64,000 bases of DNA from Octopus vulgaris (taxonomy: Eukaryota), in NCBI GenBank assembly GCA_951406725.2, contig OX597820.1:91946001-92010000 (forward strand), in the 5' to 3' direction. Shown one piece after another: positions 2,735 through 62,857 of the stretch. The notes under the pieces were generated by a model, which saw only the letters and a program-made list of their open reading frames with translations, was not told where the DNA came from and made no database searches. Positions within the stretch are counted from its first letter, which is position 1. Every line of letters starts with the position of its first letter. The position numbers and the translations under genes were made by a program.

Positions 2735-4722
2735 TCACCTACTGTAGAGTAAAAAGAAACAATAAACTCACACACACTCGCATACATAGTTATATACATA
2801 TATAATACTATACATTCATATATATATATATACATAGATACATACATACATACGTATAGATATATGTGGATGTAGAGAGATGACAGAATCATTAAGCTTT
2901 AGAAAGTAAATATTTCGATATATCGTTAAGTTTGTTTATTTCGGTACTTATTTTATATGATATGCAGTTAAATAAGACCTAAGTAAATGTCATGACAAAC
3001 AGAATGATATTTAATCAGTTAAAATGGCACGTCTAGTAAGGACTAAAGTTATTAGCATTAATAAATCTTCTCGAAAACTTAAAGGGAGACAACTTGGCTA
3101 CTTAAATTGGTTAAAAATTGAATGGGTAAATGCAGTCAGCATTGAGACTGATCTTTAGGATAAACAGTGACATTACTGGATATGATTCAACAAATAAAAT
3201 TACTTCAAATAAATACATGGACCAAATAAACATTTCCTTCTATTTGAACAATTTACTTTGTGCCTAAGCTGTGTATGAAAGACTTTCATTTTTGTGTTGT
3301 ATAAACTCAATATTATTTATTGAAGATTATTGCCTTTATTCAAAATTGCGAAACATTTTAAAAATTTCTTTTGCTCTGTGTTATTGTTTTTGTTGTTGCT
3401 GTTGTTGTTGTTGTTGCTGTTGTTGTTACTGATATTTAACCAAAAGACAACGCTGATCGAGCTGTGCAATGGTAAAAACAAACATTCCAGCCACATCCGG
3501 AACTTTGGTGTACTACATTATCTAATATGTCCTGTTTAATATTTTTTTCTTGTATGCTTTATTTTCATTCTAAGTTCATCAGAATTGTGATATCAACATA
3601 AATATATAGTCGATACAGTTACAAATACATTCAAATATTAGAGCAGCTGTTTGTTTCTTGCGTGCAATACACACACACACACACATCCACATTCACACGG
3701 ACACACAAGCATATATATACATATTCCTATATATACATATATTGGTATGTGTGTGCGTGTATATATACATACACATACGTACCTACGTATGTGCATGCGC
3801 GTGTGACCATATATATAAAGTTTACTAAATTGTTTACTTTTTGACTTTATCTGTGTGTGAACGTGCGCGTGTGTTCGCGAGCAAGTGTATGCGCATAAAT
3901 CCATTAGAAGCTAAGTCGTCTTGAATAGTTATTTTACCATTGATGCTTACCAATCTTTGAAACAACTGAATGAACTATATGTAAAGTATAAAAAAGAAAA
4001 ATATTCAGAATCATACAAGAATATTGTAGGCTTACGAATCTAGTCTAATAAGCATTGAGGAAAGGGTTCCTATTCGAGAACTAATTCTTCCGGCGTACCT
4101 GGCTCGGAAGCAAATGGTCCCTGCTTAAATTTAGAGAAGTTATCATGATTTAAATCACTACCAAAACAAAACCGCTTAAAAATGCATTATGACATTCTTT
4201 TTTTCAATTGTTGAAAAAGAAGCAGGAACGTAATATATTCATGCTTCTATAAATAACAAATGTTGGCGATATTTCCATGTCCTCCTTTTTGTATGTGTAA
4301 AATACATAAAGGCAAGTAAGGTGGGTAATGTTCATCAATTTTAAGCGCTGAACAATATTTCGCTCTTGTGGAGACGGAGAGTGTAAGAAAGAAATTCAGC
4401 TTGAGTGATTTAGACGACAGCAGTTGAAAGTATCACTGGTCAATCACCGCTGTAAATGATCGACTGTTGAAATTTACATGGTATGCTGTGCTTGCAGTAT
4501 GTAAAACTAAACATTCCCTTCCTATTGGCAAGCTTTCCGATATATATATATATATATATGAAAGGTTGTCAGTAGCAACTGGATAACGGGATTTGCATTC
4601 AGCCACCACAACACTCACACATACATACACACACACACATACGAACACACACACAAAACACACGCACATGTATAGGTATTTATATATGTGTGTGTAAATA
4701 TATACATTTATATGTATATATC

Positions 4723-5828: not shown

Positions 5829-5892
<64 letters not shown>

Positions 5893-5920
5893 AAGGGTGA
5901 AAAGGAACACACGAGTTGAT

Positions 5921-6397
5921 ATATATGAAAAAACAAGTCAAAAATAGAAAATGCTAAAATAATTTTATAGTGAACATTTCAGTACCGGTTTCGGTCATTT
6001 TGAGACCTTTTCAACTGTAACGATTAAATAATTAAATTTAGAAAAATTAGAGGAAAAGTTTTTTTAAAAGAATATTTCTATAGTAGTGTTCAGATTTAAG
6101 TGGCATTCTGCCTTTCACTGACTCACTTGTTTGCACTTGTGTGTTCGAGGTAGTTGTGTACACAACTACCTCGAACACACAAGTGCAAACAAGTGAGTCA
6201 GTGAAAGGCAGAATGCCACTTAAATCTGAACACTACTATAGAAATATTCTTTTAAAAAACTTTTCCTCTAATTTTTCTAAATTTAATTATTTAATCGTTA
6301 CAGTTGAAAAGGTCTCAAAATGACCGAAACCGGTACTGAAATGTTCACTATAAAATTATTTTAGCATTTTCTATTTTTGACTTGTTTTTTCATATAT
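5921..6397. repeat. Spacer-less palindrome, about 239-bp arms, (TA)n-flanked
   Basis: Centre TGTGT|ACACA at 6159/6160; arms identical except one indel in a T/A run. Confidence 0.97.
6301..6338 (+). ncRNA. Minimal type I hammerhead ribozyme, U3-A8 core variant (mirror copy at 5980-6017 on -)
   Basis: CAG-TTGAAAA-GGTC(tcaaaat)GACC-GAAAC-CG-GTA-CTG: stem I CAG/CTG, stem II GGTC/GACC, palindromic stem III ACCGGT, GUA cleavage triplet. Confidence 0.7.
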
Positions 6398-6730: not shown

Positions 6731-8677
6731 CGTATATATTTATGTATGTGTATATTTATGTATATATATATATATGTGTGTATATGTATATATATGTATA
6801 TATACGTATATATTTATATGTATATATATATATGTTTATATATATGAATATATATATTTATATATAAATTTATGCCTATATGTATACATATAGGCATATA
6901 TATAAATATATTTATATTATCAATAATAACAAAGGGTAAAATTAATTAATTAATAATAACAAAGGGTAAAATAATAACAATATATTTATATATACACACA
7001 CTCACGCAAACACACGTATGATATATCTGTACACTGTTATATAATGTACCATGAGGTGAAAATCAGACATCATACTGCCGCTGTCCAGAGTTCAAATGCC
7101 CACAATCCCTTAGTATCACACCTGAGAATCTAATTCAACTATTTTATAGAAGACCCAACATCACGGCAGATGCAGTGGCTTCGAAATATTCTGTTTATTA
7201 ATACTTAAGTATTTCTTAAGCATTACTAATTATACGAGATGAGTTTCTTTATTGTATGAGATACTTTTATGAGCGCTATTAGCATACCTATTGAGAGTAT
7301 CAGTTTGTATACCGGCTAGCAGATCAGATGGAGAGCATTGTCGGAAAGGGATAAATTAAGCAGACATTTGAAAGGCAAGTACATTTGCCAAATCTGCATA
7401 TCTCTGCTTTGCAACATATTCGGAAGTGGTCCTACAGCCCCTATATGTTATTAAGTACTCTGAATTCACGATATTCTCTGCACTTACTCTCAAACTATTT
7501 TTTCACAATTACATTTTTTTCTCTAGCCTCTTATAGCTTATTGGGCTTTTCCACACTTAATATGTCTTTTTCTTTTTTGAATTCTTGAGGCAGTCACAAT
7601 GTCCTCCTTCAGCTAACCATACGTTACTTGTTTTGGCAATCCAGTTTTTTCAATGCGTAATATGAGACAAGGCCATCAAAGACGTTTTTTTTTCTTTCTA
7701 TATGATCATAGGCTCTAAACTTTACAAATTTTCTTACTGGACCAGTTTTTGGTATCTGTCCAAATAACGTCTGAGTCACATCGTCACTCTGATTATTAAA
7801 CTAAACTCTTCACATACTAAAGAGATGCAGTCAGCAATGGATATCAGCTTCGGTGTCACAGATCAGACGTCAGTCATGTGCACATAGTAGTCACGAATGT
7901 GAATGATGAATTTCTTTCATGAGACAAGTAATAAACAGATTTTTGAATGTTCGCATATTGTACGATATCTGAAGTAAATATCAGTACCGTAGTGTTATCA
8001 GCAAATGATTCTTATATATCAAAGTTAAATATGGCAAAAGCATTGACAGGCCATCGTGGGTTTTGTTTTCTTTAGCAGACATTGCTTCCAGCAGTTCACT
8101 TTTAAAGCAAACACTACATTTGCAACCGGTGGGTAGTGTTTCAAATTCCACAATTTAAAGAGTATGCTCACCCCACCTTATATATATAGCTTAACTTAGA
8201 AAGGTTTTGGCCAGTATTGGCCCAGGCCATGTCTAACTTAATAGCACCACCTGGCAAAGTCTTTCAATTCAGGATTTGGGCACCAAGGCCCATTCGAGAA
8301 GAGAGTTATTTTTGCGGAGACATATCCGGGTGTGGGTGGCTTGTGCGGGACTGCTTGGAGGAATTTGTCCAAAGAATTCTTGAATTTTGTATGGTGAGTT
8401 TCTGTTTTGACGTGAATTAATTGAGGTGAAAAAATTGTGCTGTATTGTTGTTATGAGATGCGATTTAGATTTTTGTTGTGAACGGATGGCACGGGATCCA
8501 AGTCTTGGGTGTATTTTGAAGGTGATGCCAACATCATTTGGACAGTGCTGATGGAATATTTTCCACATCATACAAATAATATACCGTTCATATATATATA
8601 TATGTAGGTCCTGGGTTGAGTCGGGGTTAACCACAGTAAATAAGGTACTCAATACATAGCAGAGTAAATTAATTTAT

Positions 8678-8794
8678 TTTATAGAAGGAGCTTCTACAGG
8701 ACTAGAACTGTTTCATTCAAAAGAAATCATCAGGAAGCCAGGCTTCCTGATGATTTCTTTTGAATGAAACAGTTCTAGTCCTGTAGAACTCCTC

Positions 8795-8800
<6 letters not shown>
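8678..8800. repeat. Palindrome with 1-nt centre (8740), (TA)n-flanked
   Basis: 8692-8739 and 8741-8788 are perfect inverted arms, extending with small indels to 8678/8800. Confidence 0.95.
8690..8738 (-). ncRNA. Type I hammerhead ribozyme (mirror copy at 8742-8788 on +)
   Basis: GCTTC-CTGATGA-tTTC(tttt)GAAt-GAAA-CAG(ttctagtc)CTG-TA-GAAGC: canonical core, 5-bp stem I, GUA site. The first stem II pair is a U-U mismatch. Confidence 0.75.
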
Positions 8801-51751: not shown

Positions 51752-52200
51752 CCTATTGGGCAGGAGATTCTGCACAAGTTACCCACAGTAGGTATTTAGA
51801 TTCCGTTAATGTTAGAGAGTGATTTTTCGGATCATGCTGGGGGTTTACACCGAGATGTCTCATTGTTCACCGTTAGGAATGTTTCTAATATGTAATTAAA
51901 TCTATATAGAAAGAAGCTGCACTGTTTTAAAATGTAATTTCGGTTTATATATCATCATAGTAAATGAAAATGAATCTGTTAACGTTCTCGATGTTAAGTT
52001 TAATTTGATTACTGGCATTTACGAACCTTATCATAAGCCTAACTCTCATATCAAATATATTAATTCAGGAAGTAATCATCCACGTTGTATTAAGAAACTG
52101 CTAATATATAATATTTCTAGAAGAATTTCTGCCATATCTTCGTAAAGAAATTTTTGATGAGAATGCAGATTACGATACTATCGCTTTTTATAAGGCTATT
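51752..52200 (+). pseudogene. Penelope-like element reverse transcriptase remnant (Naiad-like)
   Basis: Frameshifted peptides GDSAQVT..VGI, GGLHRDVSLF (decayed GLYRDD) and VNVLDVKFNLITGIYEPYHKPNSHIKYINSGSNHPRCIKK...ISRRISAISS. Confidence 0.8.
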
Positions 52201-55953: not shown

Positions 55954-56019
<66 letters not shown>

Positions 56020-56060
56020 AAAGTGGGGTTGTAGGGTACCGCACGAGTGGAATAATATAC

Positions 56061-56812
56061 GAAAGAAGGTTTGAAAATGCAATTTTAAAATATTTTTATT
56101 TACTTTACCGGTTTCACTCTTTGGAAAAAGATTGTCAAAAGTAACATGTAAAAGTTTGGTTATGTTAATTATTGGTTGTTACAATATGCTACATTACATT
56201 TATACAGTCTCTGGTAACAAGAACATGTTAAGGACATAAAAAAGTTTAACAAGTCCCTTAAAATATTGGGCACAAAAGATTGTAACATAAATATACATTC
56301 TCAAGAAACTGTTAAAGATAGTTTCCAGAAGGAATTATTAAAAAGTTCAGTGGGATATTGGTATTGTATCTGTATATTCAAATACGCACAGAATATTGGT
56401 TGTCACAGAGTACTACAATACATATATATACATTCTTTGGTGACAAGAGCATGTTAAGAACATAAAAAAAGTTTAACAAGTTCATTGAAATATTGGGCAC
56501 AGATACAATACCAATATCCCACTGAACTTTTTAATAATTCCTTCTGAAAACTATCTATAACATTTTCTTGATAATGTATATTTATGTTATAATCTTTTGT
56601 GCCCAATATTTTAAGGGACTTGTTAAACTTTCTTATGTCCTTAATATGTTCTTGTTACCAGAGACTGTATAAATGTAATTTAGCATATTGTAACAACCAA
56701 TAATTAACACAACCAAACTTTTACATGTTACTTTTGACAATCTTTTTCCAAAGAGTGAAACCGGTAAAAGTAAATAAACATCTTTTAAAATTGCATTTTC
56801 AAACCTTCTTTC
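56061..56812. repeat. Fold-back element: about 313-bp arms (56061-56373 / 56499-56812), 125-bp spacer
   Basis: Arms are reverse complements with scattered mismatches. HHR-like TTACTT-TTGACAA-TCTTT(ttcc)AAAGA-gt-GAAAC-CG-GTA-AAGTAA at 56100-56144 (-) and 56728-56773 (+). Confidence 0.92.
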
Positions 56813-56816
56813 TATA

Positions 56817-56902
<86 letters not shown>

Positions 56903-61840: not shown

Positions 61841-61854
61841 TATATATATATATT

Positions 61855-62059
61855 CAAAATGTGACCTCGTGTGTACCGTTGGCGATTCTTTTCCTCTGTC
61901 TTCCCTTCTCTGGATCTTTCCTTCTCCTATGTTTCCGACGAAGAGCTCCGCTCGAAACGTTAAGCCCTCCTTCTTTCCATCTTTCCAGAGCGTCCAATAA
62001 TACTATATTTGTTCCACGTCATCACGTTGTGGTGTTTTTTTGTGTTTTCTTGTTTGGAT

Positions 62060-62064
<5 letters not shown>
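61855..62064 (+). mobile_element. (TA)n-flanked PLE-like terminal element with minimal HHR-like motif (61931-61965)
   Basis: GTTT-CCGACGA-A-GAGC(tcc)GCTC-GAAAC-GTT-AAGC; palindromic AACGTT stem III; U4 is changed to C. Confidence 0.65.
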
Positions 62065-62097
<33 letters not shown>

Positions 62098-62247
62098 GTG
62101 AAATAGAAAGATGAATAATCTTGTAGTAGATTAATCAAAAGTTTAACCGATACCTTAGTAGCAAAAATCACAGCAGTAAAACAGCACGGTTGGAGGTACA
62201 ACCATATGGTGTTGCAACCGTGCGTTGGTGCGGATAATTGAAATTAG

Positions 62248-62794
62248 AACATTATTGGTGAATTGAAGAAATGGAGCTGAACGCAGATTGAACAGAAATC
62301 GTTTTATTTCATTCTACACGTGTTTCGAAAGGCACAAATTACCAAAATCCGATGGAATAATGGGACCATATTGTGTCTTTCTCTTCAGGAAGAAAATAGG
62401 AAATCCGTTGGAAAAACAAAAACAGAACAGAGGCGGAGCAAAAACAAATCGAACTATGCTCCTAAGAGCCCATGGCGAAACTGTTTATCAGTGTATGTTG
62501 AGAACCGATGCCTGACCCGTTGAATTCTTCAGCCACCGGTTCTCAACATACACTGATAAACAGTTTCGCCATGGGCTCTTAGGAGCATAGTTCGATTTGT
62601 TTTTGCTCCGCCTCTGTTCTGTTTTTGTTTTTCCAACGGATTTCCTATTTTCTTCCTGAAGAGAAAGACACAATATGGTCCCATTATTCCATCGGATTTT
62701 GGTAATTTGTGCCTTTCGAAACACGTGTAGAATGAAATAAAACGATTTCTGTTCAATCTGCGTTCAGCTCCATTTCTTCAATTCACCAATAATG

Positions 62795-62796
<2 letters not shown>
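62248..62796. repeat. Fold-back element: about 268-bp arms, 13-nt loop, ending in (TA)n
   Basis: 62248-62515 and 62529-62796 are identical except near the loop; this explains the mirrored ORFs in the track. Confidence 0.97.
62649..62737 (+). ncRNA. Type I hammerhead ribozyme with canonical core (mirror copy at 62307-62395 on -)
   Basis: TTTC-TTC-CTGAAGA-GAAAGaCACAA(...)TTGTGcCTTTC-GAAAC-ACGT-GTA-GAA-t-GAAA: all core nucleotides, long stem II, palindromic ACACGTGT stem III, GUA site. Confidence 0.85.

Positions 62797-62857
<61 letters not shown>

Follow-up and report, generated by a model that had tools for sequence, protein, structure and literature searches.

How did a 549-bp hairpin with a hammerhead motif on each strand come to stand in this part of the Octopus vulgaris genome, and does its fold-back serve to silence the ribozymes that it carries? 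In the stretch of DNA that we analysed (64,000 nt, hereinafter designated the window), positions 62248–62507 are the exact reverse complement of positions 62537–62796, confirming the hairpin described in the first-pass annotation, with 260-bp arms and a 29-nt spacer; the 271-nt arms given by an alternative repeat call extend into the spacer and the TA tract. The hairpin does not mark the limits of the element, as that annotation had taken it to do. Positions 62096–62247 are 152 nt more of the element, and the whole insertion spans 701 bp (62096–62796) between flanking (TA)n tracts. We consider it quite probable that the hairpin is the middle of one young Penelope-like insertion, in which (TA)n tracts flank two head-to-head, 5′-truncated copies of the 3′ end, and that it likely arose from reverse transcription primed at two fixed RNA sites by the two ends of a cut (TA)n target. 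The features of the locus are:

62064–62095, no strand: (TA)n tract at the tailed (T) end, read from the sequence
62096–62247, minus strand: 152-nt tail, on the T arm only, matching unit positions 1–155 at 99%
62248–62507, minus strand: left (T) arm, an inverted, 5′-truncated copy of the element 3′ end, exact reverse complement of 62537–62796
62307–62395, minus strand: type I hammerhead motif, predicted cut after 62315, with its core from 62388, mirroring the plus-strand motif
62504–62507, no strand: 4-nt microhomology (ACCG) at the head-to-head junction, where the upstream element sequence of other copies diverges
62508–62536, plus strand: 29-nt spacer, element sequence on the S arm only, from sequence comparison
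62537–62796, plus strand: right (S) arm, a 5′-truncated copy ending at the short 3′ end; 62504–62796 matches unit positions 3333–3625 at 99.7%
62649–62737, plus strand: type I hammerhead motif, predicted cut after 62729, from a strict scan, the fold and family conservation
62797–62854, no strand: (TA)n tract at the short (S) end, read from the sequence

The sequence of the 152-nt tail recurs in tandem copies, where it follows the short end and lies immediately upstream of the ORF (the tandem junction was read in one copy). The insertion is young, as had been proposed: the best 40 of 1,229 candidate genome matches to the arm are all 100% identical, the 1,229 being candidate matches in the 2.8-Gb genome, of which 40 were scored, and not a copy number.

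Copies longer than the arm run 5′ into a single ORF of 899 aa, whose predicted fold (mean pLDDT 74) finds telomerase reverse transcriptases (RTs) as its best Foldseek matches (E 4.8e-8). The ORF contains DKT at 126, YRDD, VYQC..YVG at 781–797, CNLC at 859 and CPH at 887. The VYQC..YVG stretch aligns with homologues, one of which (P0023) matches the Pfam GIY-YIG profile at E 0.001, below the curated cut-off. Pfam searches of two ORF copies and a PDB sequence profile search gave no useful match, and Pfam finds no RT domain in them. A genome search with the RT core returned 150 scored matches ranging from 100% to 75% identity. In tandem arrays the unit is 3,625 bp long and the ORFs are intact; two such head-to-tail arrays, at G000:C1:119514150-119526690 (three full units and a partial one) and G000:C3:111170476-111176747, both end at the T site and are likely source loci. 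The telomerase-like RT ORF, C-terminal GIY-YIG domain, tandem and inverted pLTR structures, 5′ truncation, one-end tail and terminal-repeat hammerhead are together those of an EN+ Penelope-like element (PLE). A MITE or DNA transposon was rejected, there being no fixed centre and an RT lying upstream, as was a non-LTR retrozyme, which consists of short non-coding tandem repeats, whereas the tandem unit here is 3,625 bp and encodes an RT and the locus is inverted rather than tandem.

Among PLEs, the family comes close to the Hydra clade, for which DKT, YRDD, GIY-YIG, CxxC and CxH are listed by Craig et al. 2021 (PMC8557442). It has DKT in place of DKG, lacks CCHH, carries CxxC and CxH around conserved E and N residues, and inserts at (TA)n; the N-terminal RWK motif reads RWL, where homologues have RWK, RWR or RWM. 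Because the CxCX5C linker is absent, we would call the family on its sequence a Hydra-like PLE rather than a full Hydra member, its likeness to the published Hydra alignment being judged by eye. The linker motif is missing from the window family and from all 16 related copies in which the linker could be read (20 examined), is present in 12 of 15 homologues, and is replaced in the family by a low-complexity, disordered Ser/Asn-rich stretch (pLDDT <50). Hydra-1_Obim was rejected as the identity of the family on account of its listed hammerhead and N-terminus, which differ by eye. The CxCX5C motif has been linked to microsatellite targeting (PMC8557442); (TA)n follows 40/40 short-end copies, though the query held 3 tail bases, and 27/30 core-anchored copies end in (TA)n, two others continuing in tandem and one being left unassigned by the script. 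The sequences thus indicate that the zinc linker motif credited with (TA)n targeting has been lost and the targeting kept.

The family has two discrete 3′ ends: 15 of 30 hammerhead-anchored copies stop at the short end (S) and 12 after the tail (T), the remainder being two tandem copies and one unassigned. All 49 insertions with both outward ends visible pair one S end with one T end, in a set for which anchors on S, T and core were all used and S–S and T–T pairs were detectable. Twenty-six further ends are partnerless, where the partner lies outside the examined stretch, there is no inversion, or the cut falls within the tail; a minimum of three copies are simple direct insertions, flanked on either side by TA repeats. 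The same pairing appears in 64/64 arm-level calls of a separate truncation set, in which three S–S calls by the script were reassigned on inspection and some insertions are counted twice or shared with the 49-insertion set. Among 20 diverged loci, nine have hammerheads on two arms, and eight of these obey the rule, with one ambiguous. The insertion samples consist of best-scoring copies and are not random. The tail is predicted to form a long hairpin, followed by a 13-bp stem around the T site whose end, in tandem copies, lies immediately ahead of the start codon; hairpin and stem together are a candidate protein-binding signal.

These ends also bear on whether the locus could be an assembly or library fold-back artefact. 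The arms are perfect and, in four DNA-type sequencing runs, the family occurs only as short contigs, none of which bridges the junction (contigs are short in repeats), nor do the contigs of these runs contain an empty target site. An artefact is nevertheless hardly credible, since both ends fall at family-specific positions followed by (TA)n, and since the S/T rule holds at dozens of loci, including older subfamilies with diverged arms. The inversion is the family's normal insertion product.

The lengths of the arms carry information on how the two copies were made. From the 49 insertions, 48 were entered and, with one lacking the full tail skipped and one complex tandem left out, 46 remained. 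In 25/46 the S arm extends 5′ beyond the T arm by more than 40 nt, in 6/46 the T arm leads by more than 40 nt, and in 15/46 the two stop within 40 nt of each other; such near-equal truncation points average 2.8 in permutations, with a maximum of 10 in 20,000. Arm divergence within an insertion is 0.24% (56/23,335 sites) compared with 0.53% between insertions, and 31/46 junctions overlap by 1–12 nt. As only T arms carry the tail, the 25/46 insertions with a longer S arm contain no arm that could have been copied from its partner; nesting being the exception, RNA was likely the template for both. We weighed against this an origin in which one cDNA folds back, or an antisense transcript self-primes, with the tail arising from an endonuclease that resolves the intermediate. 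Such an origin would suit the 15/46 near-symmetric junctions and the perfect palindromic junctions at two self-complementary 8-mers (5 and 10 cases), and self-priming from such palindromes is favoured by Arkhipova et al. 2013 (PMC3846280). A fold-back copy must, however, sit within its template, which fails in 25/46 insertions, and at the window locus the spacer on the S arm and the tail on the T arm mean that neither arm templates the other, leaving this origin unlikely, though its antisense-RNA version might still apply.

We infer instead double priming: two fixed sites on a single RNA served as starts, and the products were joined through microhomology. In the scheme that we favour with somewhat better than even confidence, an RT/GIY-YIG protein, probably dimeric, would cut (TA)n; one of the two DNA ends would prime at S, the short site, and the other 152 nt further downstream at T, a single RNA molecule probably providing both sites; the RT primed at T would copy the tail, often displacing the first cDNA; and the two cDNA 3′ ends would be joined via a microhomology of a few bases, ACCG at the window locus. 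Double priming agrees with what is described for the PLE of the anole, which has two internal RT starts, cuts both strands and is predicted to form a dimer (PMC11167929). The 6/46 insertions in which the T arm is longer by more than 40 nt speak against it and would need trimming or release of the leading cDNA. Gene conversion, or the dominance of one source locus, could also account for the similarity of the arms within an insertion. The tandem arrays are consistent with a circle as well as with a multimeric transcript.

A strict type I hammerhead scan of both strands over the whole window matches only at 62656 (+) and 62388 (−), upholding the earlier reading of one hammerhead per strand, and by sequence each motif has the CUGANGA / GAAA / NUH core and the three helices of the type. 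The motif occurs on both strands only because both arms include it. Most of the plus-strand anatomy proposed at first pass was recovered: the core is intact, with CUGAAGA at 62656, GAAA at 62718 and GUA ending at 62729; stem III is palindromic, ACACGUGU (62721–62728) being self-complementary; and stem I is bulged, with 3 bp, U62733 and 4 bp. The 11-bp stem II is really ten pairs with an A62668•C62712 mismatch, while its 33-nt loop is as described and folds into an inner hairpin. Calling the motif fully canonical was an overstatement, since stem III has only 2–3 bp, a dimer-type design, and Rfam gives no hammerhead match; nothing in the window reaches the gathering score, and the 20 weak matches, mostly generic miRNA hairpins, include no hammerhead family.

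The monomer of the plus-strand motif adopts the active fold in about 0.06% of the predicted ensemble, and the intermolecular stem III helix is predicted at −12.3 kcal/mol; single minimal PLE hammerheads are reported not to cleave (PMC4209133). The core pattern is present in 17/20 diverged loci of the family. Over these 17 motifs and the window copy, 90% of 341 cells are paired compared with 37–48% in slid controls, 5/19 pairs have changed on both sides (0/500 shuffles reach as high), and stem III is self-complementary in 15/18 despite sequence change, although the 18 sequences are related to each other and were chosen by the core pattern, so that they lend support and not proof. RNAalifold on the same motifs recovers only the outer stem II and prefers an alternative pairing of the core 5′ strand, consistent with a poorly folding monomer. 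The hammerhead looks, from this conservation, to be under selection at the family level, and we predict that it is the family's ordinary 3′ ribozyme motif, working as a dimer in tandem transcripts. The recurring self-complementarity of stem III and the predicted stability of its intermolecular helix would also suit a model in which two RNA molecules are held together through the palindromic stem III and each templates one arm. Two equivalent RNAs should yield S–S and T–T pairs, of which there are none in 49, and the coupled truncation points and within-insertion identity favour one template, so we hold the two-RNA model to be quite unlikely and retain double priming on a single RNA.

Whether the fold-back silences the ribozyme is a separate matter. 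The antisense arm does precede the hammerhead on either strand, as had been pointed out, and the full duplex is predicted at −486 kcal/mol versus −13 kcal/mol for the hammerhead fold; a hammerhead in a read-through transcript is predicted to be buried in the duplex, as a side effect. The first-pass annotation went further, proposing that the fold-back would silence the ribozyme in read-through RNA and may thereby let insertions be tolerated in introns, a proposal that we weighed as one of a selected switch. In its favour, besides the duplex energies and arm order, the exclusion of tandem hammerhead retrozymes from introns, as reported in 10.64898/2026.07.22.740005, implies that cleavage can affect where copies persist. 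That the fold-back exists for this purpose finds no support, as inversion is the default product and also occurs where an arm is without the motif (12/47). One sense motif per transcript, together with the 0.06% monomer fold, probably leaves little cleavage to silence, in line with the inactivity of single minimal hammerheads in PMC4209133. Nor is double coverage enriched, both arms covering the motif in 35/47 insertions versus 32.9 expected if arm lengths were independent, a weak comparison on a biased sample. We regard a selected switch as very improbable. Window ORFs of at least 110 aa include no clear host exon, though short exons would escape at this length. A 260-bp perfect duplex could be costly in itself.

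If the ribozyme acts in vivo, truncations at its predicted cut site may record it. We counted arms starting in 3-nt intervals at the cut site and at five control positions. A general excess was rejected: 22 of the 30 examined matches (34 in all) start at the cut site compared with 18, 17, 16, 21 and 5 at the controls, where the interval with 5 truncations spans a common variant and the other four (16–21) are comparable. Arms starting exactly at the last base of the interval number 12 at the cut site versus 4, 6, 3, 7 and 1 in the controls. Insertions in which both arms start no more than 5 nt apart number 8 (9 including one by hand) versus 0, 0, 1, 2 and 1, with a binomial p = 1.6e-4 for a statistic picked after the cut-site set had been seen. 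This p is too strong, as symmetric junctions are non-uniform: between the control intervals fall two hot spots at palindromes, where 5 and 10 junctions are perfectly symmetric. The cut site itself forms no palindrome, and no halo of trimmed products is seen at the same offset around the larger hot spot. We give slightly more than even odds to the reading that arms stopping together at the cut are the in vivo footprint of two RTs running off an RNA cleaved after GUA. Almost all arms cross the cut site, which implies that most templates were uncleaved or religated. The whole combination, in which one RNP, lacking the linker zinc finger, carries out programmed twin priming of a (TA)n break, using two fixed sites on the RNA that lie 152 nt from each other, and the both-arm GUA stops record hammerhead cleavage in vivo, is tentative and in our view somewhat short of an even chance.

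Other repeats in the window also bear two arms or hammerhead-like motifs. Three more head-to-head hairpins, of other families, are present. The hairpin at 5890–6396, flanked by (TA)n tracts, is perfectly palindromic at its centre (6159/6160). Its left arm is longer by about 30 nt, and each strand bears a hammerhead-like motif whose core is the U3–A8 variant (6304 +, 6014 −). The short two-armed insertion at 8595–8800 is flanked by (TA)n at either side and has perfect 48-nt arms around a 1-nt spacer, the left arm carrying about 75 nt more, with hammerhead-like cores at 8747 (+) and 8733 (−). The two-armed insertion at 56015–56822 is older, with 90% complementarity between its arms; on the left it carries about 40 nt more, and a U3–A8 hammerhead-like motif lies at 56138 (−). 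The 3′ end of another repeat occupies 61854–62063 and contains a minimal, probably defective hammerhead-like motif at 61935 (core CCGACGA); the insertion studied here starts within the (TA)n tract of this repeat. The frameshifted fragment at 51788–52142 comes from an RT of this type that is more distant, with an identity of about 40%. Elsewhere, at L032:6748-8118, a copy of the present family has as its neighbour a different Hydra-like family, with an Asn-rich insert and a retained linker of the CNF..QC type.

Taken by itself, the locus is ordinary and its structure of a known kind; the family holds more interest, preserving as it does an unusually clear trace of the insertion process. Genomes of this sort may hold very many long perfect hairpins, which, if transcribed, could be substrates for RNA editing or small-RNA pathways. 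In L1 twin priming, two primers from one target produce an inverted 5′ part joined by microhomology. The present family differs in that its internal site is fixed and its arms usually overlap, so that the 3′ end is duplicated; about 5/40 copies, with an inverted part made of the tail only, resemble the non-overlapping L1 case.

Inverted 5′-truncated copies, a tail at one end and hammerheads on both strands are already known, going by the parts of PMC8557442, PMC4209133 and PMC3846280 on which we draw. Penelope-13_HM includes a 5′-truncated inverted copy with a hammerhead on both strands (PMC8557442, Files S1 and S2), and opposite-strand hammerhead pairs 100–700 bp apart have been noted in metazoans (PMC4209133). 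The Penelope elements of Adineta vaga (Arkhipova et al. 2013, PMC3846280) likewise show head-to-head inverted repeats, a tail on one repeat, microhomology junctions and Asn-rich inserts between RT and EN, but there the tail is described as optional and the inversions are read as self-priming, whereas in the present family pairing is strict and arms are frequently non-nested. The Poseidon PLE of Anolis carolinensis (Frangieh et al. 2024, PMC11167929) shares two discrete 3′ ends around a tail, an AT-rich target and a predicted stem-loop at the distal start; its tail is 30–40 nt rather than 152 nt, its hammerhead overlaps the ORF start, and, in the sections consulted, no reads end at its cut site and we found no statement of a rule of one end type per arm. 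The metazoan dimer-type PLE hammerheads described by Cervera and de la Peña 2014 (PMC4209133) have the same short palindromic helix III, long helix II and G10.1–C11.1 pair, helix II of the window motif differing in its 33-nt extension.

The closest known counterparts are those of the Hydra clade, exemplified by Penelope-13_HM and Hydra-1_Obim in Craig et al. 2021 (PMC8557442), with a single ORF encoding RT and then GIY-YIG, DKT, CxxC/CxH, no CCHH, a hammerhead near the 3′ end and (TA)n insertion. Unlike them, the family has a 3.6-kb unit (Hydra elements are generally <3 kb), a Ser/Asn-rich stretch for CxCX5C, RWL for RWK and a long stem II. In the portion of the literature searched we found neither strict S/T pairing nor a tail as long as about 150 nt, nor arms truncated at the cut site, nor linker loss with kept targeting; earlier studies of Penelope (Arkhipova 2006; Pyatkov 2004) may already treat some of these points. 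The family bears on questions that Craig et al. 2021 leave open in the text we draw on, namely the tandem and inverted structures of PLEs, the role of the hammerhead and microsatellite targeting. With intact tandem ORFs, two sharp RT starts, strict pairing, linker loss and a possible trace of cleavage, it makes these questions testable in one system.
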